The translations under genes and the position numbers were made by a program. The notes under the pieces were generated by a model. That model was not told where the DNA came from. It searched no databases and was given only the letters and a program-made list of their open reading frames with translations. DNA of 64,000 bases. It comes from Candidatus Micrarchaeota archaeon (GTDB lineage: Archaea > Iainarchaeota > Iainarchaeia > JAADDC01). The DNA is taken from contig JALTXX010000016.1 in NCBI GenBank assembly GCA_027046625.1, positions 5,512 through 69,511 on the forward strand. The letters are read 5' to 3'. Below, in pieces: positions 3,218 through 55,251 of the stretch. Every line of letters begins with the position of its first letter. Position 1 is the stretch's first letter.

Positions 3218-3279
3218 ATGTGGCCCCGGCCAGAGACACCGGTTCATGGGTCTCCGGGCGTCGCAACCGGGGCCTCCCA

Positions 3280-3354: not shown

Positions 3355-3357
3355 CTA

Positions 3358-3431: not shown

Positions 3432-3440
3432 ATGTTAGGA

Positions 3441-36532: not shown

Positions 36533-37173
36533 TATATGATGGGATTTAGAGACTTTAAGAGGTTTTCATAGAAGCGTTGAAGCCTTTGCTGATTTTTTAC
36601 CATTTTCCAATTAGCGATGTTTACCATCTTTGAAAGAGTGGCATCCTCCAGAACTCTTTCCCCCTCCCAAACTACAGGAACCGCCATGTATTCTATGTTT
36701 CTAAGCTCTATGTGGTAAATGCCCTCTCTGAAACTCTGAACACCAGCCACCTTAATTCCCGACTCTCGTGCAATGGAGAGAATGCGCTTGGCAGATTCGA
36801 GATCCTTTGAAGCTAGATGAAGGATGAAGGGTTCGACCTTAAACCACAAAAACATACCCTCGAAGGAGGATACCTTATCCAAGACCTCCTCTACCATTAC
36901 GGGTCTGTGCCACTTCCCCACAAATGAGGACGGCTCTTTTCTCTCATACAAGTCGGTAGCTAGTAATACTACCCTTCCTGAGCAAGAAGAGGTGGTAACA
37001 AACTCTTCTTTGTTGTTTATAACATTTAAAACAGGTATAATAGGTACGTCTACAGCCTCTTCCTTCAAAGCCTCTTCCAGTTTTCTCAAATGCTTTCTCC
37101 GATAGGTTTTCCAAATATCCATGAAAGAAGAGGCTCCATGCATTTTAAATCTTCGTGTATCATTTTTTCCCAT
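36532..37173 (-). CDS. taw3: tRNA wybutosine-synthesizing protein 3 homolog (Taw3/TYW3)
   Basis: SSCSGR motif characteristic of TYW3; start may be the internal Met at 37143. Confidence 0.6.
   Translation of the reverse strand: MGKNDTRRFKMHGASSFMDIWKTYRRKHLRKLEEALKEEAVDVPIIPVLNVINNKEEFVTTSSCSGRVVLLATDLYERKEPSSFVGKWHRPVMVEEVLDKVSSFEGMFLWFKVEPFILHLASKDLESAKRILSIARESGIKVAGVQSFREGIYHIELRNIEYMAVPVVWEGERVLEDATLSKMVNIANWKMVKNQQRLQRFYENLLKSLNPII
37144..37151 (+). promoter_or_regulatory. TATA-like box (TTTTAAAT) about 24 nt upstream of the rps26e ATG
   Basis: A/T box position relative to start codon. Confidence 0.35.
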
Positions 37174-37471
37174 GGGAAAGGTTACCTATGTAACGTGCAT
37201 ATACTGTGGAAGGAGGGTTCCCCGAGATTCTGCTGTACCTGTTTACAAAACCCCATCCTGGTTGTCAGCTCTTGACAACACCCAAGAGATCACCTTTGTG
37301 GGTTGGGGAGCGGAGAAGGTCTATGTTTGTATTTCCTGTGCCAAACATAGAGGAATATCATTTGAGGGATGGAGGGTAAAGATAGTAAGGGAGGACAGAA
37401 AGGTTAGAGAGCAGAAAAGAAAGAAGGCTTTGGGAAAGAAAAAGAAATCAGCTAACTCTGTAAAGAATTAG
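37172..37471 (+). CDS. rps26e: 30S ribosomal protein S26e
   Basis: start trimmed to MGKVTYVTCIYCGRRVPRDSAV; paired zinc motifs C-x2-C ... C-x2-C as in S26e. Confidence 0.75.
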   Translation: MGKVTYVTCIYCGRRVPRDSAVPVYKTPSWLSALDNTQEITFVGWGAEKVYVCISCAKHRGISFEGWRVKIVREDRKVREQKRKKALGKKKKSANSVKN

Positions 37472-39808: not shown

Positions 39809-39853
39809 CTCAATATTAGGCTTGGGATGATGTTAAAAGGGTTGTGTAGTGAA

Positions 39854-39928
<75 letters not shown>

Positions 39929-40035
39929 TCCATATGGGGGTTTAGACTCTATCACCCCATGCTGGTGGGACCTTTTGATCCCTATCTACCATATGCTGAA
40001 GGTAAGGTTAAAAAGTAGGCCTCCCAATTTATGAG

Positions 40036-40629
40036 GTGTTTATCGTAATAGAGGGAATAGACGGCTCCGGTAAAACCACACAGGCCCAGCTTCTTTATGC
40101 CTATCTTCTTAAAAAGGGCTATAAGGTTCACCTGACAGCAGAGCCCAGCCCCCACGTTACTGGAAATGCACTAAAACTTCTTTTAAGAAGCAAAGAAAAA
40201 CTGCCAAAAGGAGTTTTGCTCCTTTCCTTCTTGGCAGACAGAATAACTCACACGGAGAATACCATTAAGCCCCTTTTGAAGGAAGGATACATTGTAATAT
40301 CGGATAGATACCATCCATCTACCCTTGCGTACCAACGGGTAGAGGGATTTGAAGAGAGAGATATAAACACAGTACTAAAGGTGCTAGGCGCATCCCTTCC
40401 CATTCCGGATGTGGTGATTTACATAGATGTATCCCCTGAAGTGGCCATGGAGAGGATGCGAAGAAGGAGTAGCAGGGCAATATATGAGGAACTAGAATTC
40501 CTTAGACAGGTTAGGGAGCGATACCTTTCTATGAAGGATATAGTGGTAGTTAATGGAGAAAGAGACCCTATAACTATCCATAAGGAAGTGGTAAGCATCG
40601 TAGAGAAGTTGTTATCCTCCGATAGGTGA
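40036..40629 (+). CDS. tmk: thymidylate kinase
   Basis: 197 aa; MFIVIEGIDGSGKTTQ P-loop, DRY motif. Confidence 0.85.
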   Translation: MFIVIEGIDGSGKTTQAQLLYAYLLKKGYKVHLTAEPSPHVTGNALKLLLRSKEKLPKGVLLLSFLADRITHTENTIKPLLKEGYIVISDRYHPSTLAYQRVEGFEERDINTVLKVLGASLPIPDVVIYIDVSPEVAMERMRRRSSRAIYEELEFLRQVRERYLSMKDIVVVNGERDPITIHKEVVSIVEKLLSSDR

Positions 40630-41136
40630 AACCCTTACCTTGTAGTGACCCGGCATCTTCATGGCGGCCCTTCGCATAGCCTCTCTCACAACATTCTCAT
40701 ACCTTTTATAACTTACTACCTCAAACATGATCTTCCCTGGGTAAACCTGTGCTGCCCTCCCTATAGGTTTTCCAAAGGCCATTCTCATACCTTTCTGTAA
40801 TCTATCAGCTCCAGCACCCGTTATTTGCTTGTTCTCTCTTAGAACATGGTGAGGATATGCCCTCACCCTTATGAAGAAGTTTTTGGGTATCTTTTTCTCC
40901 AAATATTTAATTATGGATAACCTTGCAGCCTCTATGGCATTATCCCTTACCTGAACAGCATCCTGGGCTATGAGAGTATAGACAGTGTCAAAATCCTCCT
41001 TCATCTCCCCTTGCACGAACTTTCTTATCTTTGGAACAGGATTTGCACCAATGTAATTCTTCTCTGGCACTTTTACTGCTACTCTTGTATAGGGTCTCTC
41101 TATCTCTCTGTAGCATCGCGCAGGTCTCAGTCCCAT
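40612..41136 (-). CDS. rpl10e: 50S ribosomal protein L10e (uL16)
   Basis: 174 aa; MGLRPARCYR N-terminus. Confidence 0.9.
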   Translation of the reverse strand: MGLRPARCYREIERPYTRVAVKVPEKNYIGANPVPKIRKFVQGEMKEDFDTVYTLIAQDAVQVRDNAIEAARLSIIKYLEKKIPKNFFIRVRAYPHHVLRENKQITGAGADRLQKGMRMAFGKPIGRAAQVYPGKIMFEVVSYKRYENVVREAMRRAAMKMPGHYKVRVSPIGG

Positions 41137-41216
41137 GCCACTATGATGGAATGTGAGATTTAAAAAGTGCTCGGCCTTAGCAACGCTTAAATATGCAGAG
41201 TACCTAACTCAACATA

Positions 41217-42509
41217 ATGAGAGCCATCCTTCTGCTCCTTCTTTTGCCCTTCGCCTTTTCCAAGGTTGGTATATATGCAAAAGATTTTTCCGTAACTTGT
41301 TATAGATATAGCGACGATGTAAGATCTCTAAATCCAGAAACGCCGAATATTTTGGTGTCCTATCTGAGAGATGGAGGATTTGATGTGGAGCTCTTCTACT
41401 CTACGGAGGATATTGGAAAGTATGACGGAATAATAGTACTTGGATGTACATCTATGGATCCAAAGGATGTAGAGAGATTTCTATCCTTTGAAGGAAGGTT
41501 GGTGGTGGATGCTAGGGATGACAATCCTCTTTCTTCTGCGCTAGGTGTAAAGAGGAAGAGTTATCCCCTTGAGGGGACGGATACAAGCTCCTTCAGAGAC
41601 GTATATGTGAACATTACAAATGGGATCCTTCTAAAGCACGTTATAAAGGGAGGCCCGCTTGTAGGGTATGAAAGGATGTATTATGTTGGCAATCCCATAT
41701 TCCTTCCTTCAAGATTTAAAAGCGGGTTCTTGACCCCAACGGGAGAGGATGTGTTAGGAATAGACGATAACGTGGTGGTGACAGGATGTTTTTACTGTTC
41801 AGACCCGCTTCTGCTATATAACTTGGTGGACTGGGTAGAGGACGGGAAGATAGACTTCCCCAGCTTTTACATTGAGAGGGAGATAACCCCCTCCTTGGTG
41901 AGGGTAGGGGGTACCTTTGTGGACATTGTAAGGGTTAGGTCTCCCAAGGAGATGGAAGTGAGGGGAGAATACATATACGGTGAGGGCGGCGGGCAGTTCT
42001 GCAACTTTACACCCATAAATACAGAGTTTTCCGGTCCGGAAATAACAGGAAGAGAGTACGAAGTAGAAGCAAGGTTTATTTACAGGCCGGAAGAGCCCGT
42101 GTACTGCTATCTTCCTCCTGTAGTACTTGATCTTCTATGGAAAGCTTATAAGAGAACCGTAATACTTGATGCTATACCTGTAACAGTATCTTCTACTACT
42201 GTAGCGTTACCAGAAAGACCCCTAGACTGGATATACGTTTTGATTCCTCTAATTCTACTTATACTACTCTCTCCCTTCCTCTATAAACAGCTAAAAATAA
42301 GGAGGCTAAAGAAGCGATGGATTCAGTTAAAGAGGCTTATAGACAAGACAAACCAGCGTTATATGGCAAGGAAGATATCTAAAGAGGTGTATGAAGAGCT
42401 TATAACGGAGTATACGAAGGAGCTTCAGCTTGTTGAAGGAGCGCTCACCGAGCTTGGCGTAGATATAACCACCCTAGAACGATCACACCGCCCACAAGGA
42501 GAACGATAA
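41217..42509 (+). CDS. hypothetical secreted protein with C-terminal TM anchor and basic coiled tail
   Basis: 430 aa; N-terminal signal MRAILLLLLLPFAFS; TM near residue 345. Confidence 0.45.
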   Translation: MRAILLLLLLPFAFSKVGIYAKDFSVTCYRYSDDVRSLNPETPNILVSYLRDGGFDVELFYSTEDIGKYDGIIVLGCTSMDPKDVERFLSFEGRLVVDARDDNPLSSALGVKRKSYPLEGTDTSSFRDVYVNITNGILLKHVIKGGPLVGYERMYYVGNPIFLPSRFKSGFLTPTGEDVLGIDDNVVVTGCFYCSDPLLLYNLVDWVEDGKIDFPSFYIEREITPSLVRVGGTFVDIVRVRSPKEMEVRGEYIYGEGGGQFCNFTPINTEFSGPEITGREYEVEARFIYRPEEPVYCYLPPVVLDLLWKAYKRTVILDAIPVTVSSTTVALPERPLDWIYVLIPLILLILLSPFLYKQLKIRRLKKRWIQLKRLIDKTNQRYMARKISKEVYEELITEYTKELQLVEGALTELGVDITTLERSHRPQGER

Positions 42510-43335
42510 AGTATAGCGGGATACCCTCTTCACTTCCATATACTGTGGTGCTTGATTTTGTAGAACACTCCCCAGATCTTACCTCTACTGTGATCTCCAC
42601 AGGGAAGGATTCCACCCTTGATATTATTTCAAACAGTTTGGAATCCTTGGTGTATCGCACCTCCACGTTGTTACCATTTAGTGTAGCCACAACGTTGGAG
42701 GGGACGACCCTTTTACCATCTAGGAGCACCTCAAAGGTGTGTATTATGTATGTATCTCCTCCTTCCCTTAGCTGCTTGGTGGAAAGGTGGTTGATCTCCA
42801 GATTGCAGGATGAGAGTTTTACTATGGGAGAAGAGAGGGATGGGGAGCCCCTTCTTACCCTATAGCTGAGATAACCTCTCCCGTCCTTTACAGTAACAAA
42901 CCATGCAACGGTAGGATCAAACTCCAATACCATTTTATCCTCCGAGAGTATCTCGTCCGCATCCTCTACCATCTCCTTGGGAAACTCCTCTATCACAAGG
43001 TAATTTCCATCCTCCCCCTCTATAGTAATGGATACGCTTTTTCCATTGATTGTCTTTGACCAGTTATTCCCCTTGATGACATCGTAATCTACTGTTACAA
43101 GCTTGTTATCCAGGGAAGTAAACACAACCCTAAGCTTATCTCCTGCATCAATATCTGCACAACACACATACTTCCCATTTTTGTATTCACAGGTTGCCAG
43201 TGCGGTGCTATCATCTGACATGAAAGTGGCGTAATTCTTTACATTTGGGAGTCTATCTACGCAGATTGTGTTTGCGAATGATGTGGTAGACAGTACGAGC
43301 AGGAACACCAGTGGATAAAGCAATGGACGCCACAT
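42445..43335 (-). CDS. hypothetical secreted protein with C-terminal TM anchor
   Basis: start trimmed to MWRPLLYPLVFLLVLSTTSFA signal peptide (ORF track starts 43440); C-terminal hydrophobic segment. Confidence 0.4.
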   Translation of the reverse strand: MWRPLLYPLVFLLVLSTTSFANTICVDRLPNVKNYATFMSDDSTALATCEYKNGKYVCCADIDAGDKLRVVFTSLDNKLVTVDYDVIKGNNWSKTINGKSVSITIEGEDGNYLVIEEFPKEMVEDADEILSEDKMVLEFDPTVAWFVTVKDGRGYLSYRVRRGSPSLSSPIVKLSSCNLEINHLSTKQLREGGDTYIIHTFEVLLDGKRVVPSNVVATLNGNNVEVRYTKDSKLFEIISRVESFPVEITVEVRSGECSTKSSTTVYGSEEGIPLYFIVLLVGGVIVLGWLYLRQAR

Positions 43336-43627
43336 CTTCTCCAGAAACATATTTGTGCAGGATGATTTTAATGGTTTCCTCAGAATGCTTTGGAGGTCTT
43401 CCCCTCCCCCTCCCGCTCTCCACCACCCTGATGCCCACACTTTCCAAAGCCCTTATTACGGAGGGATCGGATATATGTTTAATACTCTTTGGAACTACTA
43501 TGCGCTTTAAGGAGGGCATGCGAAGCAGTATGTTTGTTACAAGCTTTTTGGAAAGCCGAATGGATATGTAAACACTATCATCGTCCTTTAATTTTTCCAC
43601 ATCACTTATTCTTCTCACTTTTTGCAT
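43253..43627 (-). CDS. small HTH-containing protein (AT-hook-like GRGRGRPPK plus Tc1/resolvase-type HTH)
   Basis: 124 aa; C-terminal SIALSTGVPARTVYHIIRKH helix-turn-helix; last gene of the top6B-top6A string. Confidence 0.4.
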   Translation of the reverse strand: MQKVRRISDVEKLKDDDSVYISIRLSKKLVTNILLRMPSLKRIVVPKSIKHISDPSVIRALESVGIRVVESGRGRGRPPKHSEETIKIILHKYVSGEDVASIALSTGVPARTVYHIIRKHNLRR

Positions 43628-44609
43628 TTTTCAATGCCTCCAAGAACCTTTCAGCTTTGCTCCCCCCTTTACACATATCCTTCAAGAGGGAGTGTGCAAG
43701 ATCCCTTGTGTATAGAGAACGTCCCAATCCCTCAATCTTTTTTAACGTGCTTAGGATACGTTCTCTTTTGCATTCATCATCCCTAATATAGGATTCTATC
43801 TGGTCTACTGATGTGACACCTCTCAAGGGCCTTTTTGGATAGTAGGGAGGGAAGTACGTGAAGTATTTAACAAGAAACCGGGATATTTCCCTAGCTACCC
43901 TATCTGATAGAATATGGTACGCCCTGAACCTCTTGCTCCTAACCTCCTTTAGTACGGCGGGATCTATTTCTCCCTCCTTTGTAAGAAATCCTTCCTCCTC
44001 TAACCTTTGTAAAAGCATCCACATGATTTCTTCGTTTCTATATATGTTGTCAATGCCAAAGGAGAGTACAATGTTTACGTATCTCTGGGCCCTCTCCGAT
44101 AACGTGGGTAGCTTAACCTCTTCAAGGGACTTTGCCAGACCTATATATGTAACTATGAGGTGAGTTGATCTAGGTAGCTTCTTTTTGTGCATAAAATCTG
44201 TAAACACCATGAAAGCGGCACCATTCTTTACAACCTTCATATAGGAGCCATCGTAGGGCAGAAATGGGATGTAATCCGTTAATATGTTATCTTCTAGGGA
44301 GTATAGAGCCAGTTTGTTGGCATGATAAGCTACTGTAGCCCTCTCGAGGGTCCACTTCTTGATATTTATAGAGTATATATATCTTTTCAACGCATTTATA
44401 GCCTCGAAGAGTTCCTCATCTTCCAGTTCTTCCATACCAGGAAGGAGCTTCCTAAGAGAAAGAGCAGGTGTGCGAAAGCCTTGCCTATGCATCTCTGATA
44501 TGAACTCTTTGAGCCTTTTTACCCTTTTTCTTAGCGTGTTTACATCCCTTGTCTCATCATAGGCATCAAGCTCTTCATTTACCTGTGCTACAAGTTCTCC
44601 CACGTCCAC
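43602..44609 (-). CDS. hypothetical protein encoded directly downstream of top6A
   Basis: 335 aa; no recognised motif; 43-nt gap to top6A and 26-nt overlap with the next gene suggest co-transcription. Confidence 0.45.
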   Translation of the reverse strand: MDVGELVAQVNEELDAYDETRDVNTLRKRVKRLKEFISEMHRQGFRTPALSLRKLLPGMEELEDEELFEAINALKRYIYSINIKKWTLERATVAYHANKLALYSLEDNILTDYIPFLPYDGSYMKVVKNGAAFMVFTDFMHKKKLPRSTHLIVTYIGLAKSLEEVKLPTLSERAQRYVNIVLSFGIDNIYRNEEIMWMLLQRLEEEGFLTKEGEIDPAVLKEVRSKRFRAYHILSDRVAREISRFLVKYFTYFPPYYPKRPLRGVTSVDQIESYIRDDECKRERILSTLKKIEGLGRSLYTRDLAHSLLKDMCKGGSKAERFLEALKNAKSEKNK

Positions 44610-44652
44610 ATTACTATGGTACTACGCTGCTAATATAAGCATATCTGAAAAA

Positions 44653-45801
44653 TTATGGCAAAAAGGCCTTGGCCTCCAGCTTGGCAGGCACATAATCCTT
44701 TGATATGAATCTCCAGTGTTTTGAGGCAGCAGCCTCAATTTCCATCTTGAACTGCTCTTTCTCTAGTAGTTCAAACTCTCTTTGCCATTCCTTCTTCTTA
44801 AACCATGGATAATTTTTCAGCTCGTTAACCCTCTTTATATCCCACTCCTTTAGTTTTATCTTCACTGTGGGCGGAAACTTGAACTCGTGGTAATCTGAGA
44901 TGGTTAGACCCAGGAACCTGGCTGCAGGGGTTGCGAGTTGGGGAGAAAGGTAAGATAGGTTTATGGAGCCCTGTTTGTATACGGAATATATGTACCACCC
45001 AGCAGGATCTGCATCTGTGAGTACATACACAGGCAACTTAAATTCGTAGTGCAGTCTGTGAACTAACCTTCTTGTGGCCCTGTCTGCCTGGCCTCCGCCT
45101 GTTATAATGATGGCATTGTACTCATCCCAGAACCTATCCTCATGGAATCTTACCCAAGACGCAAACTTCTCAATAACTAGCACAAACTCTGCCTCTACCT
45201 TTTTTATGTGGACCCTTTCTGGCTCTACAATGGGAGGTATGGCCCAGCCCCCCATACCTAACATGGTTCCATCCACCTCTGTGACCCTATGTTTTCCATC
45301 GGGGGACGGGACCCTCTCTTCTATCTCTATGGGGCCTGCTAGATGCCCCTTCCCTCCCTGGGACATGATGTGAAACTCCTCTCTTATGACGTTTAGCATG
45401 GTTTCAAGGTCTTCTATAGCCTTGTCACTTTCCCTCTGCTCATCTACGAGGTTCTCCCTTGTGCCTGGAATAGTAAACTTTACTGTGTAGTAGAGATCTC
45501 TCAAGCTTGATGTAATACCCTCCTCTACAAGTTCCTTTATTCTGCTTGCCACCCATACAGTTTGGAGGAAGCGCTTTGCATGTGCTATATTCAAGAAGTA
45601 TCTTCTAGAAAGCTTTTCTCCCATAAGGATTACACCCTTTTCCTCGTCCCATATAACATTTGAGAGTGTTCTTGTTGGTAGCTCTATGTAAAGATCCTTC
45701 TCTTTCTCTGCTTTTTCTAGTATAGACTCTGCCCACTCCTTTAATCGCTTCAAAACCTCCTTATCCTTCCTTCTAATCTCCTCAATAATCTTCTCGTTCA
45801 T
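44653..45801 (-). CDS. top6A: DNA topoisomerase VI subunit A (Spo11-like)
   Basis: 382 aa; winged-helix/5Y-CAP then Toprim YVLTDADPAGWYI. Confidence 0.9.
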   Translation of the reverse strand: MNEKIIEEIRRKDKEVLKRLKEWAESILEKAEKEKDLYIELPTRTLSNVIWDEEKGVILMGEKLSRRYFLNIAHAKRFLQTVWVASRIKELVEEGITSSLRDLYYTVKFTIPGTRENLVDEQRESDKAIEDLETMLNVIREEFHIMSQGGKGHLAGPIEIEERVPSPDGKHRVTEVDGTMLGMGGWAIPPIVEPERVHIKKVEAEFVLVIEKFASWVRFHEDRFWDEYNAIIITGGGQADRATRRLVHRLHYEFKLPVYVLTDADPAGWYIYSVYKQGSINLSYLSPQLATPAARFLGLTISDYHEFKFPPTVKIKLKEWDIKRVNELKNYPWFKKKEWQREFELLEKEQFKMEIEAAASKHWRFISKDYVPAKLEAKAFLP

Positions 45802-47477
45802 GCACTCTCAACCTCCAGTTTCTTCATAAGCTCCTCTAGTCTCTTGTATCTCTCTTCTAGGAGGGATTTTAGAGTACTTTCTACCACTTTTTCATCCTTT
45901 CCTGTTAGGGTAGCCAGACCTTTGGATAAAAATGGTAGATAATGTTCTAAGATCTTCTTCTTTTGCATAAGCTCATTGATGCTGTGTACTTTTGATGTAT
46001 ACTCCTTTAGCTTTCTTCCAGCCTCCATAAGGGCCTGCCTTATCTCGTTGTACACCTCCGGTACATCTGCTATGGCCTGTTTTCCTGCTGTGGTATAAGG
46101 TATGTGGGTTGATGAGATGTTTACCATGATAACTACAGGGGCATTGAAGACATCCACGCCGTATCTGTTCCAATCAATACTTTTTACCGCTTCTGTAATG
46201 GCACACCCCCCGCTATCAAATAGGAGCGGCACCCTGTTGGCAAACCTCATAAGTTCAAAGTTTTCAATCTTTCCTCCAACTGCTATTCCAACCTCTACCT
46301 GGAAGGGGATACCTCCGTAGTATACTTTTGGCTTTCTCTCTACCACAGACACAAACGATGGTTTTAGGTTTGCCTTTAGGGAAGTTTTGATGCGTTCCTT
46401 CCCAATGGGTATGAGTACATCTGTGCTAGGACCTCTTATTTTTACCTCTTTTAGAATATTAAGTAGATTCTTAGCCTTCTCTTCATCTATCTCCTTACCT
46501 AAAACCTTTTTGAGCATTTCAATACCTTCTTTTTCATCAAAATCTCTCTTCTTTTCTGCCATTGTTCTTAGCAGCCTAAAGAGCATTACGATCCTTTCTG
46601 CCTCCTCCCATGTTAGTTCTTGAGGAGGTTTGTTTAGCTCTCTAGGGAGAATATGCAACATAGATATGATAGCTTTGCTACCTATGCCGTGAAGATGAGA
46701 GGTGATCATGCGAGCTACTGTTTTGCTCTTTGCTATCCTGCTAAGGGAGAAAATGTCATCTGTTGTGATACCAAATGGATGAGGCTTTGCCTCTATACCT
46801 ATCTTTACAGGTTCGAAGGTACTTCTCTCAAAGGTGGTAATCTTTCCGTCGGGCTCTGTAAATCTTATAGTGACATGGGGGTTGGCCAAAGCTGTCCTTC
46901 TGAGATACTCATATACGGAGTATTTTCCTCTGTTGTATTCCACCTCCTTTAGCTCTACGATTACCTCTGTACCTCTGAAATCCCCTGGATAGTGCCTTTT
47001 AGACTTTACATCAGGCTCGTTCTTTGTTACATCTACCATTACCTCCATTTCCCATACCGTTCCATCCCCTGTAGAGGTGATAATCTTCACTGGCTTACCT
47101 GTGGTAATCTGGGAAAATAGTGTTACACCTGCAGCCCCGATACCTTGTTGACCCCTAGTCTGTATCATTCTATGGAACTTTGTGCCGGCGAGAAGTTTTC
47201 CAAACACCCTTGGAGCTATGTGGGGAGGAATACCAGGGCCATTATCCTTTACCGTTAGCCTATAATGCTCATCTCCCAACCTTTCCAGCGAAACAGATAT
47301 ATCCGGCAGTATACCAACCTCTTCACATGCATCCAATGAGTTGGTTACAAGTTCATGAACTGCGGTAGTAAGTGATCGTACCTTTCCTGAGTAGCCTAGC
47401 ATGTGTTTGTTTTTCTTGAAAAACTCTGCCACAGAGTGCTCCTTAAACTCTTTGAATATGTCTGTGCCCTCAGGCAT
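45798..47477 (-). CDS. top6B: DNA topoisomerase VI subunit B (GHKL ATPase)
   Basis: 559 aa; Bergerat fold motifs ELVTNSLDACEE, DNGPGIP, GxxGxG; 4-nt overlap with top6A. Confidence 0.9.
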   Translation of the reverse strand: MPEGTDIFKEFKEHSVAEFFKKNKHMLGYSGKVRSLTTAVHELVTNSLDACEEVGILPDISVSLERLGDEHYRLTVKDNGPGIPPHIAPRVFGKLLAGTKFHRMIQTRGQQGIGAAGVTLFSQITTGKPVKIITSTGDGTVWEMEVMVDVTKNEPDVKSKRHYPGDFRGTEVIVELKEVEYNRGKYSVYEYLRRTALANPHVTIRFTEPDGKITTFERSTFEPVKIGIEAKPHPFGITTDDIFSLSRIAKSKTVARMITSHLHGIGSKAIISMLHILPRELNKPPQELTWEEAERIVMLFRLLRTMAEKKRDFDEKEGIEMLKKVLGKEIDEEKAKNLLNILKEVKIRGPSTDVLIPIGKERIKTSLKANLKPSFVSVVERKPKVYYGGIPFQVEVGIAVGGKIENFELMRFANRVPLLFDSGGCAITEAVKSIDWNRYGVDVFNAPVVIMVNISSTHIPYTTAGKQAIADVPEVYNEIRQALMEAGRKLKEYTSKVHSINELMQKKKILEHYLPFLSKGLATLTGKDEKVVESTLKSLLEERYKRLEELMKKLEVESA

Positions 47478-47507
47478 GGATCATCTCTCTTATTTGAAGA
47501 GAAATTA

Positions 47508-48119
47508 TTAAATATCCCCTCTCTCTTCCTTTTCCCATATGCCAAACTTGCTATATATTTTTTCCATGGTTTCTCTCCTCTTTTCATTCTCCAACTCCCT
47601 GAATACCACCGTATGAGGACTCCCATCAACTATCAGCCTATTTATAGCTCTCTTTGCAAGCTCTATAGCTTCAAAGGTGCCTATGATAGATACTGTGTTA
47701 CCATATATCCTTATGTTTGTATCTGTAAGCTCCTCTAACCTCTTTCTTGCCGAGCCCTTGCTACCTATGAGACGGGCTCTCTGCCGGGGGATGGCATGCC
47801 TCCCCAGCACCTCCTTCAGGTTGATAATCTCAAGGTATACATCGTCCCTGAAGAGGTTGAGGGCCGTGTCTGGGTCAAAGCCTCTGCCTATTGCCTTCAC
47901 AACCCTAACAGCGTTCAGAAAATTTATAGGATCGGTTCCTTTCCCGCCCTTTACTGTTACTTCCCCACTCTTGGAATCTATCCGTATTCTTACATCTGCA
48001 AGATTCTCTATTCTTTTCTTAACCTTCCCTTTTTTACCTATTAATACTCCTATTCTTTCCCTTGGAATTCTCACAGATTCTTCCATTCCCTCTTCTCCAT
48101 ACATGAAGTCTTCCTCCAC
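47508..48119 (-). CDS. double KH-domain RNA-binding protein (Dim2/Pno1-like)
   Basis: 203 aa; two KH GxxG motifs (IGKKGKV, IGSKGSA). Confidence 0.7.
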   Translation of the reverse strand: MEEDFMYGEEGMEESVRIPRERIGVLIGKKGKVKKRIENLADVRIRIDSKSGEVTVKGGKGTDPINFLNAVRVVKAIGRGFDPDTALNLFRDDVYLEIINLKEVLGRHAIPRQRARLIGSKGSARKRLEELTDTNIRIYGNTVSIIGTFEAIELAKRAINRLIVDGSPHTVVFRELENEKRRETMEKIYSKFGIWEKEERGDI

Positions 48120-48133
48120 AAACTATCCAATGT

Positions 48134-50473
48134 ATGCATCACTTTTTTAACCCACCCATCCCTATTACATTCATGTCCTATTCCATTATTTCACCCCTCC
48201 TCATTATCCTCATCGTAGTAGCCTCCTCCCTCTTCCTCTACAACACCGTCATCTCCTCTCTCCAACCCATCCAGTCCACTCCTTCCTTCGTTCCACTAAT
48301 CATCGAAGAATACAAACAGGAGGGCAACCTTCTCACCCTCTACATCAGAAACCCCTCAAACACCTCAGCCTCCCTCCCCTACATCCTCGTCAAAACAGAA
48401 GAAGGGATAACAAAGATTGACCTCAACGCCACCATCCCCCCAAACTCCTCCCAGCCCATCACGGTAGAGCTCCCCTCCACTACATCCCAAGAGATAGAGG
48501 TATCCCTTGGAGGAAGCACCTCCTACCAGGTCCAGATAGAGCCTACAACTTCACTGTCAGCTCTATTCTGCCCTATCCTACCTCCAGACTGCACAGACCC
48601 CAACTCTCCCTGTGCAGGCACCGGCTGTTTAGCCTCGTATCCAAAGATCTTAGGAACTTATACATTTCCTACTAATGTTGCGCACGATATGGCTCTTCAT
48701 CCAGAAAGAAACCTGGCCTTCGTAGTCAACGGATATTCAGGCCTCCTCACCATCAACTACACAAATCCTTCCTCCCCAACATTAGAAGGAAACTATGACA
48801 CCCCAGGCTATGCCCAGAGTGTAGCCCTTGATACCCAGAAGAACTTGGCCTTTGTAGCAGATAGATCATCAGGCCTCCTCATAATAAATTACGCTATTCC
48901 ATCTTCTCTTACCTTAGAAGGTAATTACAATACTTCTGGCGACGCTCTAGGAGTAGCCCTCCTCCCAGAAAAGAACCTCGCCTTCGTAGCCGACGGACTT
49001 TCAGGCCTCCTCATCATAAATTATACCAACCCCGCTAACCCTGTATTAGAAGGCAACTACAACACTCCAGGAACAGCTATCTCTGTGGCTCTCGATCCCG
49101 AAAAAAACCTTGCCTTTGTAATCGATGGCAATTTACAAATTGTTGACTACACCAACCCATCATCTCCAACCCTGGTAGGAAGCTATGCCACCCCAGATAA
49201 TGCATTTTCGGCTGCCTTACTTCCCGGGATGAATATAGCTTTTGTGGTGGTTGGTTACTCCGGTATTCTTATTATCGATTACACAGACCCCACAAACCCC
49301 ACTTTAATTTCTGAGCATAACACTTTAAGCCCAGCGATTGATGTGGTTCTATCTCCAGAGAGTAACACCGCGTTTGTAGGCACCTACGACTCTGTCATTG
49401 TTATAGATTATACAGATCCGGCAAATCCTGTAGTAGAGAAGAATTTCTTTATTAGTATAAATTACTCCATAGCCTTTTCTTCAGACAGGAACCTTTTATT
49501 TACGGGCTCATTCCATCAGATTAACATCATTGATTACTCGCAGCCTGACACTGCCCCATCGCTCCTTACTAACTACCCTATAAGCATAATAACAAGGGGT
49601 ACGGCAGTAGGAGTCATCCTCCTATCAGAGAAAAACCTTGCCTTTGTAGCCGACAGGGACTCAAACTATGTCCTCATCATAAACTACACCGATCCTACAA
49701 CCCCTATTTTAGAAGGCAACTACAACACTCCAGGAACAGCTATCTCTGTGGCTCTCGATCCCGAAAAAAACCTCGCCTTTGTAATCGATGGCAATTTACA
49801 AATTGTTGACTACACCAACCCATCATCTCCAACCCTGGTAGGAAGCTATGCCACCCCAGGATATGCCCAGAGTGTAGCCCTTGATACCCAGAAGAACTTG
49901 GCCTTCGTGGCGGATAGTACCGCAGGTCTTCTAATAATCAGCTATACAGATCCTACCAGCCCTACTCTGGTAGGAAGCTATAGCGTACCATACTATGCTG
50001 CTGGTGTTGCTCTCCTCCCAGAAAAGAACTTGGCCTTCGTAGCCGACGGACCTTCAGGCCTCCTCATCATAAATTATACCAACCCCGCTAACCCTGTATT
50101 AGAAGGCAACTACAACACTCCAGGATATGCTGAAGACGTAGCCATAGATATAGAAAGAAATCTGGCCTTTGTAGCAGACAATGAAGCAGGTGTTCAAATA
50201 ATAGACTATACTATCTCCTCCTCCCCAGTAATAGCAGGATCCTACGACACCCCGGGCTACGTATTCAATGTAGCCCTCCTCCCAGAAAAGAACTTGGCCT
50301 TCGTAGCCGACGGACCTTCAGGCCTCCTCATCATCAACTACACTAACCCATCATCTCCAACCCTAGTAGCAAGATCGTATCCAGCGTCAACAGATGTAGC
50401 ATTGGATGGAAACCTGTTGTTTGTTGCTGGAGGAAACCTTTACGTTCTAAACATCTGCAACTGTTTGACTTAA
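48134..50473 (+). CDS. LVIVD-repeat beta-propeller surface protein with N-terminal signal anchor
   Basis: 779 aa; about 14 repeats of NLAFVAD-GxSGLLIINYTNPSSPTLxGxYxTPGxAxxVAL (LVIVD-type); start may be the internal Met at 48173. Confidence 0.7.
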   Translation: MHHFFNPPIPITFMSYSIISPLLIILIVVASSLFLYNTVISSLQPIQSTPSFVPLIIEEYKQEGNLLTLYIRNPSNTSASLPYILVKTEEGITKIDLNATIPPNSSQPITVELPSTTSQEIEVSLGGSTSYQVQIEPTTSLSALFCPILPPDCTDPNSPCAGTGCLASYPKILGTYTFPTNVAHDMALHPERNLAFVVNGYSGLLTINYTNPSSPTLEGNYDTPGYAQSVALDTQKNLAFVADRSSGLLIINYAIPSSLTLEGNYNTSGDALGVALLPEKNLAFVADGLSGLLIINYTNPANPVLEGNYNTPGTAISVALDPEKNLAFVIDGNLQIVDYTNPSSPTLVGSYATPDNAFSAALLPGMNIAFVVVGYSGILIIDYTDPTNPTLISEHNTLSPAIDVVLSPESNTAFVGTYDSVIVIDYTDPANPVVEKNFFISINYSIAFSSDRNLLFTGSFHQINIIDYSQPDTAPSLLTNYPISIITRGTAVGVILLSEKNLAFVADRDSNYVLIINYTDPTTPILEGNYNTPGTAISVALDPEKNLAFVIDGNLQIVDYTNPSSPTLVGSYATPGYAQSVALDTQKNLAFVADSTAGLLIISYTDPTSPTLVGSYSVPYYAAGVALLPEKNLAFVADGPSGLLIINYTNPANPVLEGNYNTPGYAEDVAIDIERNLAFVADNEAGVQIIDYTISSSPVIAGSYDTPGYVFNVALLPEKNLAFVADGPSGLLIINYTNPSSPTLVARSYPASTDVALDGNLLFVAGGNLYVLNICNCLT

Positions 50474-51420
50474 TGCTTTTTTAGCTTTAGGATGAGGGAG
50501 TGGTATTTGTATGTTTTGTCCAGCATTTCAAGGTATCTTTGAAGAATCGCTGCCATGGCCCTTCTCTTCGTGTTTTTGTCCCTTATCTTTTCAAGAGTGG
50601 ATTCCATAAACTCTGAGAGAGCTGGGGTGGAGAAAAGATGCCATAAAATCTCAACCTTATCCTCAATGTTTTTATCAGGCCTGAATCTGCCCTCAATAGT
50701 GTCTTTAACAGCCTTCTTCAGCTCCTCCTCTATGGATTCCCTGTATTTGTGTGGAGTGTAGGGAGCTTCCTCGCAGCGACCTTCCTCTCTGCACTCCTTT
50801 ATCATGCGTTCAAATTCCTCTCTCCCCTCAAAGAAGGCTAGAGGTTTGTTCTTTGGTGCTACCTGGGGCAGCATGTAGCCCTCCTCCTTAGTGAGGGGCA
50901 TGTAATTCCACACCACCTCTATGGGGGTGTTGTACTTCTCTTCTATTTCTCTGACGATGCGGGCCACCTTTTCAGAATCCTTTAGGTTGTCCACCACAAT
51001 GAGCAGATCAAGATCATCTACCATGCCTATATCAGGAACGTCTCTCATTTTCACGGGAACCCCATACATATTCATGGTAAGGGTACCCCCTCTAACTGCA
51101 AATACCTTTAGATTCTTTCCCAACGCCTTTTTTACTTTGTTGTAAACCTCTATGGCAGTTTTTAGATGTTTCTTGTAAAGATCTGCGTACACGGTAGCCC
51201 CTTCCTTTACAATATCCCCTTTCAGATTCTTCATGACGGCGTCTTTCTTTGCAGCCGTTCTAATGGGGTATCCCTTCCTGAGCTCCTGCTCTCCTTTCTT
51301 ATTTATGTAGTAATATCCATGACCTATATTTTCTAGTTCTTTCCAGAATTCCTCAAATATGAAGGGTTTACCTCTTTCTCTCAATCTTTTGGCAGCCTTC
51401 TCCCACGGATGTATCTCCAT
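50470..51420 (-). CDS. hypothetical protein, possibly a divergent Pol-beta-superfamily nucleotidyltransferase
   Basis: 316 aa; weak GG ... DDLDLLIVVD pattern resembling NTase G[GS] ... DhD; otherwise unrecognised. Confidence 0.35.
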   Translation of the reverse strand: MEIHPWEKAAKRLRERGKPFIFEEFWKELENIGHGYYYINKKGEQELRKGYPIRTAAKKDAVMKNLKGDIVKEGATVYADLYKKHLKTAIEVYNKVKKALGKNLKVFAVRGGTLTMNMYGVPVKMRDVPDIGMVDDLDLLIVVDNLKDSEKVARIVREIEEKYNTPIEVVWNYMPLTKEEGYMLPQVAPKNKPLAFFEGREEFERMIKECREEGRCEEAPYTPHKYRESIEEELKKAVKDTIEGRFRPDKNIEDKVEILWHLFSTPALSEFMESTLEKIRDKNTKRRAMAAILQRYLEMLDKTYKYHSLILKLKKH

Positions 51421-51469
51421 GTTTCTACAATGTCATGGATCTTTAAATGCTCTTGCCATAACTTTCTTT

Positions 51470-51553
51470 GCCGGGGTGGCCGAGCGGTCCAAGGCGCCGG
51501 ACTCGAGATCCGGTGGGATCACTCCCGCGCGGGTTCAAATCCCGCCCCCGGCG
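51470..51553 (+). tRNA. tRNA-Ser(CGA)
   Basis: acceptor GCCGGGG/CCCCGGC, long variable arm, T-loop GGTTCAAATCC, anticodon loop CTCGAGA. Confidence 0.8.
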
Positions 51554-51565
51554 CTGTTAAGCTTC

Positions 51566-51640
51566 CACAGTATCACATACTCTTATCCCCTTCCCTATAA
51601 GACAGATCTTCATCTCCAACGCTTCGCTCTTTGATTTTTT
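51566..51640 (-). pseudogene. relic 3-prime fragment of a third C-type-lectin pilin-like paralog (encodes ...LEMKICLIGKGIRVCDT)
   Basis: 36-nt imperfect direct repeat (3 mismatches) of the 3-prime end of the 51891 gene; hand translation matches the conserved C-terminus KICLIGEGVNVCDT of the paralogs; frame broken upstream. Confidence 0.4.
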
Positions 51641-51890
51641 CCCACTTCAGGGTATTTACTCTACCAGATAGGACCTCTCTTAGGCGCTCCTCGAGTTCTT
51701 TCCCACGGGTTTCTTCCTCTTTCTCAAATAGCAGGTCTACAAAAGTGTTGAATATTTCTTCCAAGTTAGTAATTCGTGTCTCCAGTTACTCGATCCTCTT
51801 CTCTAACGTGGTAGCCTTCTCCATGTTAAGAACTTACCCTATTCTACATTTAAACCTCTTCTATCACAGCCGAAATCTTGGTGGAGAATG

Positions 51891-52757
51891 TCAAGTGGCA
51901 GTAGTATCACAAACTCTTAGCCCCTTCCCTACAAGACACACCCTAACATCAATGAACTGAAAACCTGTTTTGGAGGGAATCGCCTGAAGTGTACAACTTG
52001 CACTCCCGCCTGGGGAAACAGGAAGGATAGTATCGCATTTTACAACCGGTATGTAGAGGGACCGTACAGTACCTCCTATGTTTACATCAACCCTGATTGG
52101 TTCTCCAATCCTCTTTGAGGCAACTGTATAACCAGATAATGTCTCTATCCTAAGCGTTAAACTTCCAAGGATCAAATTCCTTGTAGAAGAATGATTAGAC
52201 ACAGTAAACCCAATTCCGATCTTCTCACATATGAAGGGAAGAGGTACGGACCCATTTCTATCATCCCATCCCGTGGATGTTATGACGGCAACATCCTCCC
52301 CGTTAGCATCATCTGGCTTGCCACCCATCCAAAAATCACCCACTATAGGATCTCCCGTAATGTACTTCCACCCACCATCTGGCTCTGAAGATTCAGGGGA
52401 TTGGTACACCCCTATGTATGCTGCACTCCACCCCTTAGAGCTAACAATATTTTTCAGCACATTGTTTTGACCATCCGTTCTGGGAGTGGCAAGAAACATA
52501 CCCCTCTCTTTACAGTAATTAAATGCATCTACCCAGTTCATGGGGGTAGAAACAGGCAGGTAATAGTGCAAATAATAGCTAGCAATTCCTGGTGGACCTA
52601 CCTCTTTATAGGCTTCAAGCGACACCCCTATGGGAGAGGTATCCTCAGCTGTAGTCTGCTCAGAAAGTTTTGCCACACCCATGTATATGATTATCCCAAG
52701 TGCCAGTACTGTAGCTATGAGGAGGAGTGTTGCCACAATGGGTGAGATGCCTCTCAT
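51891..52757 (-). CDS. class III (type IV pilin-like) signal peptide protein with C-type lectin domain, paralog 1
   Basis: start trimmed to MRGISPIVATLLLIATVLALG; CTLD hallmarks NWVDAFNYC ... GWSAAYIGVYQ ... GGWKYITGD ... WMGGKPDD ... EDVAVI ... WDDRNG ... LPFICEK; C-terminal Cys-containing beta domain. Confidence 0.62.
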   Translation of the reverse strand: MRGISPIVATLLLIATVLALGIIIYMGVAKLSEQTTAEDTSPIGVSLEAYKEVGPPGIASYYLHYYLPVSTPMNWVDAFNYCKERGMFLATPRTDGQNNVLKNIVSSKGWSAAYIGVYQSPESSEPDGGWKYITGDPIVGDFWMGGKPDDANGEDVAVITSTGWDDRNGSVPLPFICEKIGIGFTVSNHSSTRNLILGSLTLRIETLSGYTVASKRIGEPIRVDVNIGGTVRSLYIPVVKCDTILPVSPGGSASCTLQAIPSKTGFQFIDVRVCLVGKGLRVCDTTAT

Positions 52758-52840
52758 CCTAACGAAAAAAAAACGATGAATAAATACCTTTCGGCCAGAG
52801 GTCGTTATGTATAATAACCCCTTATATACATCCCCTCCCA
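52758..52840 (-). promoter_or_regulatory. conserved 5-prime/promoter element of the lectin-pilin paralogs (copy 1)
   Basis: about 50 nt nearly identical to 54438-54490, including a T9 run and TATTTATT box, directly upstream of the MRGISP start. Confidence 0.4.
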
Positions 52841-52849
52841 TTTAATAGC

Positions 52850-53173
52850 ATGGAACCCCTTTCCACCATTAAGCGAATAATAGAGGAGGAAGCCTCCCGC
52901 CTCAACATAAAAATAGAGAGGATTATCCTCTTTGGAAGCAGAGCAAAGGGAACAGAGAGAAAGGATAGTGACTATGACATTCTAGTAATTACTCAGCATC
53001 CTGTAAGCAGACACCTTATGTATAAATTCCACTCTAACATTAGAATAAGGTTGTACAAACTTCTGGGGAGAGAGGTGGATATTATCGTTGTAGATAGGGA
53101 CTGGTTTAAGCGGAGGAGTAGATTATGGGGAAGCGTGGAATACGCAGCGGCAAGGGAAGGAATGGTGGTGTGA
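52850..53173 (+). CDS. minimal nucleotidyltransferase (MNT) of a HEPN-MNT toxin-antitoxin pair
   Basis: 107 aa; LFGSRAKGTERKDSDYDILV NTase motif (GSxxxG ... DxD). Confidence 0.75.
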   Translation: MEPLSTIKRIIEEEASRLNIKIERIILFGSRAKGTERKDSDYDILVITQHPVSRHLMYKFHSNIRIRLYKLLGREVDIIVVDRDWFKRRSRLWGSVEYAAAREGMVV

Positions 53174-53553
53174 GTATTGTATGTGAGTGGTTGGAAAGAG
53201 CTAATAGAGACCTGAAAGCGTCTAAGTTACTCCTAGAGGAAGGATTATACGAGGAGTCAACCTTTCATTCCCAACAGGCTGTAGAAAAAGCCCTGAAGGC
53301 ACTCCTTTTGGCTGTAAGGATCTTACCGCCAAGGACCCATAGCATAGAGCGGTTGTTGAGTATGCTAGAGGAGAAGATTGATGTTTCTTGGGCGTATGAG
53401 ATGCACTTGCCAGCACTAACCTACTATGCCATAGAGGTGAGATACCCGTCCCCTCCTGTATCTGAGGAGGAGGCAATAGATATGCTAGATATAGCAAGAA
53501 AAGCGATTGAAAGGGTGAAACTAATCTTGAAAGAGAAGAAAATACAATGCTAG
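53170..53553 (+). CDS. HEPN-domain protein, partner of the MNT
   Basis: start placed at GTG overlapping the MNT stop (GTGA); R-x6-H HEPN-like motif (RILPPRTH); ORF track gives a longer form from 53125. Confidence 0.62.
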   Translation: MSIVCEWLERANRDLKASKLLLEEGLYEESTFHSQQAVEKALKALLLAVRILPPRTHSIERLLSMLEEKIDVSWAYEMHLPALTYYAIEVRYPSPPVSEEEAIDMLDIARKAIERVKLILKEKKIQC

Positions 53554-53555
53554 AT

Positions 53556-54437
53556 CTATACCTTCACCGTATCACACACATTTACCCCTTCTCCAATAAG
53601 GCAAATCTTCAACTTGGATACCTCATAATCTACCTCCTTTAGAGGAAACGCCCAGAGAGAGCACGAGGCACTTACATTGGGTGGCACATCCCATCTATCA
53701 CATTTTAGGCGGGGAACGCTAACCCCTCCTACTCTTGTATTATTTATGTCCACAGAAAACCAGCTGAGGGAGTCTGTCTTCACCGCTGCTAGCAGTCTAT
53801 TGTTTAGTGCGTCATACACATGAACACTTACATTGGTGAGATTCAGAATGCCTTCAGAGGATACATTGGTAACCGTGAATCCAATCATAATCTTTTCACA
53901 CACAAAGGGAAATAACTCCGCTCCGCTATAGTCATGAAGACCATCTGACCTTATAGCCGCCACATCTTCAGCTGTGTTATCATCTGGCTGCCCACTTGCC
54001 CAGAATCCTTCCCCTATCAATCCCATTGCATCCCCCGTAACATAGTACCATCCCTTGTCTGGCTCAGAAGACCCAGGACTCTGGAATACACCCACCCATG
54101 CGGCTGTCCACCCCTTGGCTGCAAGGATATGCTTTATCTTATCGAGCTGCAGAAGGGACTTTGGAGCTGCAAGAAACATCCCCCTCTCCTTACAATAGTT
54201 AAACGCTCCTATCCAGTTCATTCCCGTAGAAACAGGCACATAGTACCTGAAGTAGCCAATGGATGCCCCTCGTGGTGGATAATCTAGGTATGCCTCCATC
54301 ACAACAGAGTATATCTGCCCCTGCTGGCCAGAGGTACCCTCCACCATCTGAGAAACACCCATATAGAGCAATGCTCCAATAGCAACAACGATAGCAATCA
54401 ACAGCACCGTTGCCACGATGGGTGAGATACCTCTCAT
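53556..54437 (-). CDS. class III (type IV pilin-like) signal peptide protein with C-type lectin domain, paralog 2
   Basis: MRGISPIVATVLLIAIVVAIG; CTLD hallmarks NWIGAFNYC ... GWTAAWVGVFQ ... KGWYYVTGD ... WASGQPDD ... EDVAAI ... FPFVCEK with QPD motif. Confidence 0.65.
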   Translation of the reverse strand: MRGISPIVATVLLIAIVVAIGALLYMGVSQMVEGTSGQQGQIYSVVMEAYLDYPPRGASIGYFRYYVPVSTGMNWIGAFNYCKERGMFLAAPKSLLQLDKIKHILAAKGWTAAWVGVFQSPGSSEPDKGWYYVTGDAMGLIGEGFWASGQPDDNTAEDVAAIRSDGLHDYSGAELFPFVCEKIMIGFTVTNVSSEGILNLTNVSVHVYDALNNRLLAAVKTDSLSWFSVDINNTRVGGVSVPRLKCDRWDVPPNVSASCSLWAFPLKEVDYEVSKLKICLIGEGVNVCDTVKV

Positions 54438-54498: not shown

Positions 54499-55251
54499 CT
54501 ATCTTAGGGCTTCCCAGAGGATTTCGTCGTGAGAATACACCTGTATTCCCTTTTCCGTAATAGCTAGAGGATGCACTCTGTTTGAATGTCTTGTACCTCT
54601 CATCTTTCGTATAAAGATTGCCCTGTGGGGCGGTATAAAGTATAGCCTTATCACACCATCTGCTACAAACTCCTCCACTCCAAAGGTGGAGAACTTCATC
54701 CTATCATCCGGAGCTCCTGCTGTAAGAACGGTGGTTACTCCCAACTCCTTTAGCTTATCCAGCAGATAGTACAAGTAAAAATCTACGGAAGAGGGATCAT
54801 ATGCCCATATACCCTTTGTACTATCTCCTGCAAGTGGAACAGCCCCCAAATATTTTACCAACGCAGTCAGAGAGTCTATGGCAACTCTAAAGGCTTCAAT
54901 CTTTGTTACCAGACTTACAATTTCATCCACTTCTTTTCTCCAGTTTTCTCTAAACTGGCGAGGGGAGGATACCCTTACTCTGAAGATCTTCATGGCATTG
55001 GCAACAGAAGTATAATCCCACTTGAAGTTCTGCAGGTTCCACGTGATGTTGGAGGCTGGCTCCTCCAGCGTTATAAACACACCGGGCTCTTGATAGAGGG
55101 ACGCTCCTGCGTAGATATATTGCAGTGCAAAGATAGTTTTACCTGTACCCGGACCGCCAACCACCAGAATATTGGAGTTGCGGGGGAACCCCCCAGATAT
55201 GAGGTCATCCAAACCTGGGATGCCTGTCTGTACTCTCTCCACGCTATCCAT
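54499..55251 (-). CDS. KaiC-like RecA-superfamily ATPase (single domain)
   Basis: 250 aa; GIPGLDDLISGGFPRNSNILVVGGPGTGKTIFALQYIYAG matches the KaiC family N-terminal motif. Confidence 0.75.
   Translation of the reverse strand: MDSVERVQTGIPGLDDLISGGFPRNSNILVVGGPGTGKTIFALQYIYAGASLYQEPGVFITLEEPASNITWNLQNFKWDYTSVANAMKIFRVRVSSPRQFRENWRKEVDEIVSLVTKIEAFRVAIDSLTALVKYLGAVPLAGDSTKGIWAYDPSSVDFYLYYLLDKLKELGVTTVLTAGAPDDRMKFSTFGVEEFVADGVIRLYFIPPHRAIFIRKMRGTRHSNRVHPLAITEKGIQVYSHDEILWEALR

Follow-up and report, generated by a model that had tools for sequence, protein, structure and literature searches.

In the 64,000 nucleotides (nt) of contig JALTXX010000016.1 analysed here (the window), from a Candidatus Micrarchaeota archaeon, uncultivated and of DPANN type, a gene on the forward strand (48173..50473, +) codes for a 766-amino-acid (aa) protein built of LVIVD repeats. 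We propose that it is a surface protein joining an N-terminal pilin-like module to a twin beta-propeller, and that the blades of this propeller have probably been homogenised by several recent and short gene conversions. In the proposed architecture a carrier module (an N-terminal helix and an Ig-like beta-sandwich, kin to archaeal type IV pilins) would be followed by a cysteine-rich linker, then by the propeller head, whose fourteen blades are likely to form the ligand-binding, i.e. adhesive, part. The location at the surface is presumed and the adhesive role putative.

The repeats themselves are readily recognised. The Pfam family PF08309 (LVIVD) matches the protein with E=1.3e-51 and 172 bits, the cut-off being 20.2, and eight stretches stand above threshold. 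Motif search and codon alignment together delimit fourteen LVIVD units, thirteen of 42–48 aa and a C-terminal one of 26 aa, with the conserved core N-L-A-F-V. Propeller 1 (48644..49603, +), drawn from motif, alignment, AlphaFold2 model and fold search, consists of a leading strand and units R1 to R7, which start by motif and alignment at 48680, 48812, 48944, 49076, 49202, 49334 and 49460 (+). Propeller 2 (49604..50470, +), drawn from the same evidence and from Pfam, consists of R8 to R14, with starts at 49604, 49739, 49865, 49997, 50129, 50261 and 50393 (+; motif and alignment). The AlphaFold2 model, made with 58 homologues, has a mean predicted local distance difference test score (pLDDT) of 85.9, mostly above 95 in the repeat region, and its 56 strands make fourteen four-stranded blades. 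The best Foldseek matches in the PDB are tandem twin seven-bladed propellers—Aip1 (1nr0), Utp21 (4nsx) and axonemal WD proteins—aligned over about 650 columns at 10–15% identity; a search of solved structures with the sequence of the LVIVD protein gave no match. The repeats are predicted to fold as two seven-bladed propellers. An earlier description made from the DNA letters (hereafter the sequence-only reading) had announced an LVIVD beta-propeller of about fourteen units, and this is borne out by the family match, the unit alignment, the model and the fold search.

No C-terminal sorting domain was found by Pfam, and the protein stops right after blade 14. The median identity of the blades is 50% (52% over the 13 full blades), and only R4/R9 (95%) and R3/R11 (93%) are near-identical. 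Units R5 to R7 are the most divergent and have no share in the DNA tracts described below. Most units are too far apart in sequence for Tandem Repeats Finder, which detected no array in the gene.

The N-terminal module comprises a hydrophobic alpha-helix (aa 6–29; 48188..48259, +), pilin-like in the AlphaFold2 models and in the alignment with two of the homologues introduced below, P0246 and P0247, and a seven-stranded beta-sandwich (aa 43–121; 48299..48535, +), found in two AlphaFold2 models. A cysteine-rich linker modelled with low confidence comes next (48536..48643, +; Cys 133, 140, 147 and 152; pLDDT below 50 at residues 115–155). An exhaustive HMMER search with residues 1–157 against 1.8 billion representative proteins retrieved five matches, P0243 to P0247. 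In P0243 (449 aa, E=5e-58) the module is identical at 100 of 108 aa (93%); the similarity stops abruptly after 'IQIEPT', and the head of P0243 is a DUF2341. No record gives the genomic context of P0243. The match to P0244 (E=1.7e-5) is confined to a short segment of the query, at its linker end, and P0244 was set aside. In P0245 (652 aa) the module is also present, at 34% identity. The module of the window matches P0245, P0246 and P0247 with library-wide E-values from 1.7e-4 to 6.4e-4; both P0246 (4.8e-4) and P0247 (6.4e-4) are small and begin in the classic manner of archaeal pilins (...SKA-VFTIVA, ...RKA-VSPIVA), and P0247 ends in a similar cysteine-rich tail.

A profile of five module sequences then matches, over its full length, the archaeal type IV pilus subunit of P. 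calidifontis (8FK7, E=1.1e-8), and also, in its helix, Iho670, a pilin of the Ignicoccus adhesion filament (E=3e-3). The AlphaFold2 model of the module alone (pLDDT 73) finds 8FK7_A as its top Foldseek match, over 134/136 residues (E=1.4e-3; template modelling (TM) scores 0.43/0.48), and archaeal FlaF and the Aap pilus also appear in the list. The N-terminal hydrophobic anchor of the sequence-only reading is supported and, with it, a protein probably exposed at the surface. The term “signal-anchored” that it used can be refined: besides the hydrophobic helix, the N-terminus has a beta-sandwich, the two together forming a pilin-like module.

Several observations nevertheless weigh against a pilin-like module. 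The window sequence alone, like a three-sequence profile without P0246 and P0247, finds no pilin in the PDB; the relationship to pilins is a transitive one. Pfam Pilin_N (PF07790) is not matched by the N-terminus of the LVIVD protein, and the TM scores of the fold search against 8FK7 stay below 0.5. Class III signal peptides are short basic leaders ending in [K/R]-[G/A/S] right before the hydrophobic stretch; the canonical motif (basic-Gly/Ala) is absent from the protein, which begins MSYS-IISPLL... and has no Lys or Arg in its first 45 residues. P0243 and P0245 likewise lack the class III cleavage motif. Finally, among the window open reading frames (ORFs) scanned, none was recognised as a pilus ATPase, a platform protein or a prepilin peptidase.

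The leader devoid of cleavage motif and basic residues, the silence of Pilin_N, the filament machinery not found among these ORFs and the failure of the window sequence alone to match a solved pilin equally favour another view, in which the helix would be no more than a Sec-type signal anchor of the ordinary, uncleaved kind, and the protein would stand alone on the membrane, at the surface or in association with the S-layer, with no pilus-like filament involved. We grant this view close to an even chance. It accounts poorly for the significant library-wide similarity to small pilin-like proteins with N-termini of the RKA-VSPIVA type, for a profile match to 8FK7 that spans helix and sandwich together, and for an independent fold search giving the same top match; nor does it explain why the same module bears another head in P0243, a pattern described for modular pilins (PMC8179133). 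We consider with moderate confidence that the N-terminal module is pilin-like, without filing the protein as a proven pilin, and we commit ourselves to a protein held by a pilin-like helix. That the protein is displayed by a filament resembling a type IV pilus, be it on the filament or at its tip, is a more tentative proposal, to which we give somewhat less than an even chance; otherwise the helix would serve simply as a membrane anchor.

At the DNA level, several near-identical tracts came to light when the gene was compared with itself, by BLAST and by scanning its diagonals without gaps. In the longest, tract 1, the end of R3 and R4 (49046..49196, +) match the end of R8 and R9 (49709..49859, +; diagonal scan) at 150/151 positions, and at 151/151 in a second assembly, from ENA, presented below. 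The sole site differing between these two copies is 49111 (+), a T facing a C at 49774, which is a synonymous change (CTT/CTC, Leu). Tract 2 is common to R3 (48959..49072, +) and R11 (50012..50125, +), with 111 of 114 nt identical. The first 59 nt of its R11 copy (50012–50070) are found without any change (59/59) at the start of R13, where they form tract 3 (50276..50334, +); besides, 48953–49017 in R3 and 50270–50334 in R13 are identical at 62 of 65 positions. Tract 4 associates the end of R1 and the start of R2 (48787..48852, +) with the end of R9 and the start of R10 (49840..49905, +), 63/66 nt being identical. Its second copy overlaps by 20 nt the end of tract 1 in R9, and this overlap is the place where the sequence switches from R4-like to R1/R2-like. 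R13 is a mosaic blade, since an R11-type start is followed by an R4/R9-type stretch: past tract 3 its identity with R11 falls to about 45%, and 50337–50373 matches R4/R9 at 34/37. The edges of the tracts are sharp, the tracts span unit borders, and their lengths are about 40–150 nt. The near-identical blocks seen by the sequence-only reading are real. Of the coordinates that it gave, 48806–48852 against 49859–49905 was exact (46/47), and the three other pairs were out of register by 1–3 nt, so that taken literally they score 45/149, 38/102 and 20/69.

The tracts contrast with the rest of the repeats. In the codon alignment of the 14 units, ordinary pairs are 40–70% identical in nucleotides and 20–57% at third codon positions, and synonymous sites in these other pairs are near saturation, whereas R4/R9 stand at 97% overall and 95% at third positions, and R3/R11 at 91% and 86%. 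When two units have the same amino acid, the codon is also the same in 39% of the cases for tract-free pairs, compared with 49/50 inside the 151-nt tract (P~1e-20). A permutation test on the longest identical run, applied to 78 pairs and conditioned on the overall similarity of each pair, singles out R11/R13 and R2/R10 (P<=0.0002). The blocks far exceed what chance or constraint on the protein would give, and recent intragenic recombination or gene conversion is required to explain them; on this point the codon identities and the permutation test join the blocks themselves in support of the sequence-only reading. In the LVIVD family such long exact internal repeats are uncommon, not unique: the longest exact internal aa repeat is 50 here, with a median of 13 among 120 LVIVD homologues, three of which reach at least 40.

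Sharp edges, tracts crossing unit borders and single mosaic blades together point to several conversion events. These would have been recent, short (about 40–150 nt) and non-reciprocal exchanges, i.e. gene conversion rather than crossover, between blades of both propellers. They possibly overlie an older duplication of the three-blade block R2-R3-R4, because R8-R9-R10-R11 is collinear with R3-R4 then R2-R3, and subtracting one offset (663) from the other (1053) leaves 390 nt, exactly the length of R2+R3+R4. The same collinearity and the same 390 nt could also be read as the trace of a single recent segmental duplication by unequal crossing-over, from the R2–R4 block to R8–R11, followed by point divergence without any conversion. 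We regard this scenario as unlikely. The identity of R8 to R11 with R3, R4, R2 and R3 is 78, 97, 67 and 91% respectively, thus from 67% to 97% across the supposed block; within units it drops abruptly from about 100% to about 45–55%; and R13 joins an R11-type start (59/59) to an R4/R9-type middle (34/37). A uniform divergence would not make such edges, as indicated by the permutation test. The uneven identity from unit to unit and the abrupt switches within units argue for several separate exchanges, not for one duplication. Certainly, without an outgroup, conversion and duplication followed by divergence are not fully separable, and the collections hold no orthologue; this tells against too firm a preference for conversion. 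The “fresh duplications” of the sequence-only reading hold as recent exchange; simple tandem duplication fits less well than multiple conversions, the tracts being short, sharp-edged and straddling borders, and some blades mosaic.

The distinction bears on the number of blades. Conversion would copy sequence among blades and leave their count at 14, whereas an unequal crossover at the observed tracts would be expected to give 9/19, 6/22 or 12/16 blades. Since crossover would break the 7+7 design, copy-neutral conversion fits better than a change of copy number. The number of 14 is probably constrained by the predicted 2x7 architecture. The idea of a copy-number-variable protein finds no support: two assemblies both have 14 units, and the predicted 7+7 fold constrains the number.

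The second of these assemblies, an independent one, is the ENA scaffold REYS20-1_SAMN12239309 scaffold_611, which covers 35798–52888 of the window without gap and with 8 mismatches (99.95% over 17 kb). It encodes the identical protein from Met14 on (numbered from an upstream ATG discussed below), with the same 14 units. The sole mismatch inside the gene is at 49111, where ENA has a C, and this is the very site that tells the 151-nt copies apart. This difference is either a segregating conversion polymorphism or a consensus ambiguity in a repeat about one read long. In Logan, a contig of run SRR10312489 is 100% identical to 39909–47564; it carries the gene for topoisomerase VI (topo VI) B and ends before the LVIVD gene, the full-length product of which is on no Logan contig. 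Behind all of this stand assemblies of short metagenomic reads, probably from a single sample, which weighs against the interpretation.

One may wonder whether the blocks, or the order or number of the units, are an artefact of short-read metagenome assembly, produced by a chimeric k-mer path or by consensus bleeding among units. The longest block (151 nt) is about the size of one Illumina read, the only base changed between assemblies in the gene is the paralogous variant site 49111, and the Logan contig with topo VI B halts at 47564. Yet the architecture agrees base-for-base in two assemblies, the ORF is intact, with exactly 14 blades and a confident prediction of two propellers, and the lengths and partners of the tracts vary, unlike the outcome of a single mis-join. 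Moreover, assemblers mostly collapse repeats instead of creating extra near-identical copies. An artefact is therefore highly improbable. The warning of an assembly hazard remains plausible, given a block about one read long and a gene in which 49111 is the sole difference between assemblies. As to an identity arising from purifying selection and codon bias on equivalent blades rather than from recent exchange, the blades do have a conserved protein motif in common, but third positions near saturation outside the tracts and, above all, the codon comparison given above (39% versus 49/50) effectively refute it.

The start of the gene deserves a comment. The ORF list confirms an ORF at 48134..50473 (+), which codes for 779 aa from its first ATG; this upstream ATG at 48134 is in frame with the one at 48173. 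Met14, at 48173, is more likely the true start, because the ENA gene call is of 766 aa, identical from Met14 on, and because the N-terminal homologues begin 3–5 residues ahead of an I[IT]SP motif (M-x(2-4)-I[IT]SP). A start at Met14 leaves a divergent intergenic region of 68 nt, common to the gene of a KH-domain protein. A T/A-rich box, TTTTTTAA (48143..48150, +), can be read there about 23 nt 5' of the Met14 ATG; it might be an archaeal TATA element serving a leaderless or short-leader transcript, and it would fall within the coding region if the ATG at 48134 were the start. By exact look-up, the 779-aa product is absent from the records, the 766-aa product is found solely on the ENA scaffold, and the KH neighbour, at 203 aa, is absent as well. 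On the other side, a 316-aa ORF (50470–51420, −) is convergent with the LVIVD gene, and 4 nt are common to the two 3' ends; Pfam finds nothing in this ORF, which the ENA scaffold also has. The GC skew of the segment 48001–50000 (−0.345) is the strongest of the window, at a normal GC content (46%); in the LVIVD gene the coding strand is rich in C (Pro, Thr, Ser and Leu codons), and this, not a foreign composition, accounts for the skew.

The genes around are archaeal: topo VI A and B, a KRR1-type KH protein, L10e and AglB/STT3. The nearest named topo VI B has 70% identity and belongs to metagenome-assembled genomes labelled Candidatus Diapherotrites (DPANN). Four relatives at about 70% keep the synteny KH-topoVIB-topoVIA...L10e-dNK, and no LVIVD gene lies 5' of KH in these four. 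In L015/L016, a sister lineage from the same sample (67% identity in topo VI B), the position of the LVIVD gene is occupied by the gene of an unrelated 635-aa protein (1344–3251, −), divergent from the KH gene; this protein has an N-terminal hydrophobic helix and a faint resemblance to the beta-sandwich module (E=0.34). This position may be a variable slot for surface proteins. A scan of GTDB genomes with topo VI B found only Micrarchaeota loci at 43% identity. No orthologue of the LVIVD protein was found in the protein collection, the GTDB genome scan or the JGI metagenome scan, and a search of metagenomes with the first 213 aa yielded repeat-level matches only.

Downstream, two paralogous genes that we call lec1 (51891–52757, −) and lec2 (53556–54437, −) are 55% identical in nucleotides. 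Both products start MRGISPIVAT..., a leader (MRG-ISPIVA) which looks canonical for the archaeal class III / type IV pilin type, and both contain a C-type lectin domain (PF00059, E=2.8e-11 and 1.3e-6 respectively) and a C-terminal beta-rich region; lec2 also has a sub-threshold match to Pilin_N (E=0.11). The genome thus appears to hold several proteins in which a pilin leader or a pilin module goes with an adhesion-type head. Seven of the 8 differences between the window and ENA cluster in a 91-nt patch of lec1 (52404–52494). The window allele there has the lec2 base at 5 of the 7 sites, which is not statistically strong; the patch may reflect a conversion between the paralogues or a strain polymorphism. 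A diversity-generating retroelement was considered for this patch and rejected as unsupported: no template repeat was found, the only similar DNA is lec2, with 81% over a stretch of 76 nt, and none of the ORFs scanned was recognised as a reverse transcriptase.

Between lec1 and lec2 lies the gene of a HEPN-domain protein (PF05168, E=1e-30; 53125–53553, +), and directly downstream of lec2 that of a stand-alone KaiC-like ATPase (PF06745, E=7e-59; 54499–55251, −). KaiC/RecA-like ATPases of the ArlH type go with some archaeal filament systems; no other filament gene is seen here. A tRNA-Ser(CGA) gene (51470–51554) separates the 316-aa ORF from lec1. At the edge of the window are Cas1 (PF01867, E=4e-82; 394–1353, −) and Cas4 (PF01930, E=6e-54; 1358–1849, −), with no CRISPR array in 1–420 of the window, beside Cas1; a 408-aa ORF without Pfam match (1887–3113) adjoins them, and a cluster of four tRNA genes (Gly-TCC, Arg-GCG, Thr-TGT, Glu-TTC) follows at 3144–3515 (−).

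The near-identical internal blocks can be regarded as routine concerted evolution in a beta-propeller gene, with a practical warning: short-read assemblies of this LVIVD gene call for long-read confirmation. What the present case adds is an architecture, that of an archaeal pilin-like carrier fused to an LVIVD twin propeller, with pilin-leader C-type lectins nearby. A bolder proposal, which we consider doubtful, is that this DPANN archaeon uses a “modular pilin” family where a leader-less carrier module is recombined with interchangeable adhesion heads. If so, the heads would be the twin propeller of LVIVD blades and DUF2341, joined by the two neighbouring C-type lectins, which are borne on canonical pilin leaders. 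Conversion between blades would then be a means to vary, or to homogenise, the host-binding surface of a pilus-tip adhesin. The whole would be an archaeal counterpart to the LVIVD modular pilins of the candidate phyla radiation (CPR) bacteria, hence a parallel solution in both radiations of ultrasmall episymbionts. Host recognition and attachment are poorly understood in DPANN archaea, and swappable heads borne by pilins would be concrete candidates for these functions.

Concerted evolution by gene conversion is known for tandem-repeat proteins of the surface or of recognition, for example those of the fungal HNWD genes with WD40 repeats. The LVIVD gene resembles them in that short tracts homogenise some repeats while others diverge; unlike them, it displays no sign of diversifying selection or of functional switching.

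Propellers with near-identical blades are documented and widespread (Pereira & Lupas 2022, PMC9218822), the cut-off used to define them being a median blade identity above 60%. As in these recently amplified propellers (PMC9218822; Afanasieva et al. 2019, PMC6805158), the near-identity of nucleotides from blade to blade reveals an ongoing exchange or amplification inside the gene. The present protein differs from them by its median identity of 50%, below the cut-off, and by a near-identity limited to certain blades or to portions of them. The pattern here is thus one of patchy conversion between two differentiated propellers, theirs one of wholesale amplification of a single blade.

The LVIVD family was first described in surface proteins of Methanosarcina, with a repeat of 42 aa (Adindla et al. 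2004, PMC2447325). Our protein has in common with the LVIVD surface proteins (PF08309/IPR013211) tandem units of about 42–44 aa, the NLAFVAD and GL.IID motifs, a predicted propeller and a surface context. Its nearest homologues are 41–45% identical, over the repeats only; they are mostly bacterial proteins of about 1,070–1,100 aa with C-terminal sorting domains of the FlgD-Ig/type IX secretion system kind (FlgD_ig or Por_Secre_tail; PF13860 or PF18962), and others are PGF-CTERM proteins of Methanosarcinales. Unlike all of these, the protein described here ends at blade 14 and carries the pilin-like N-terminal module instead.

With 8FK7, the flagellar-like type IV pilus of P. calidifontis (Kreutzberger et al. 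2023, PMC10334743), and with Iho670 (5KYH), the module shares a hydrophobic helix at the N-terminus and, after it, a beta-sandwich of equal size. These archaeal pilins are subunits of about 140–300 aa with canonical class III signal peptides, whereas here a twin propeller of about 610 aa is added and the motif is missing. A 2026 preprint on archaeal type-4-filament systems reports that some pilin-like proteins lack class III motifs and that such loci include adhesin-like proteins.

The closest parallel in design comes from the modular type IV pilins (Raynaud et al. 2021, PMC8179133), which include an 860-aa pilin of Ca. Falkowbacteria with 12 copies of IPR013211, that is, of the LVIVD repeat (PMC10210494). 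Like them, our protein begins with a small module of pilin type, from which a linker leads to a bulky adhesion-type head, here of the same repeat family, and its carrier module occurs elsewhere with another head (P0243, DUF2341). The modular pilins are bacterial and have the prepilin motif IPR012902, whereas the module described here is of archaeal type, linked to pilins by transitive evidence of homology and devoid of cleavage motif. A bacterial counterpart with the same family of heads already exists.

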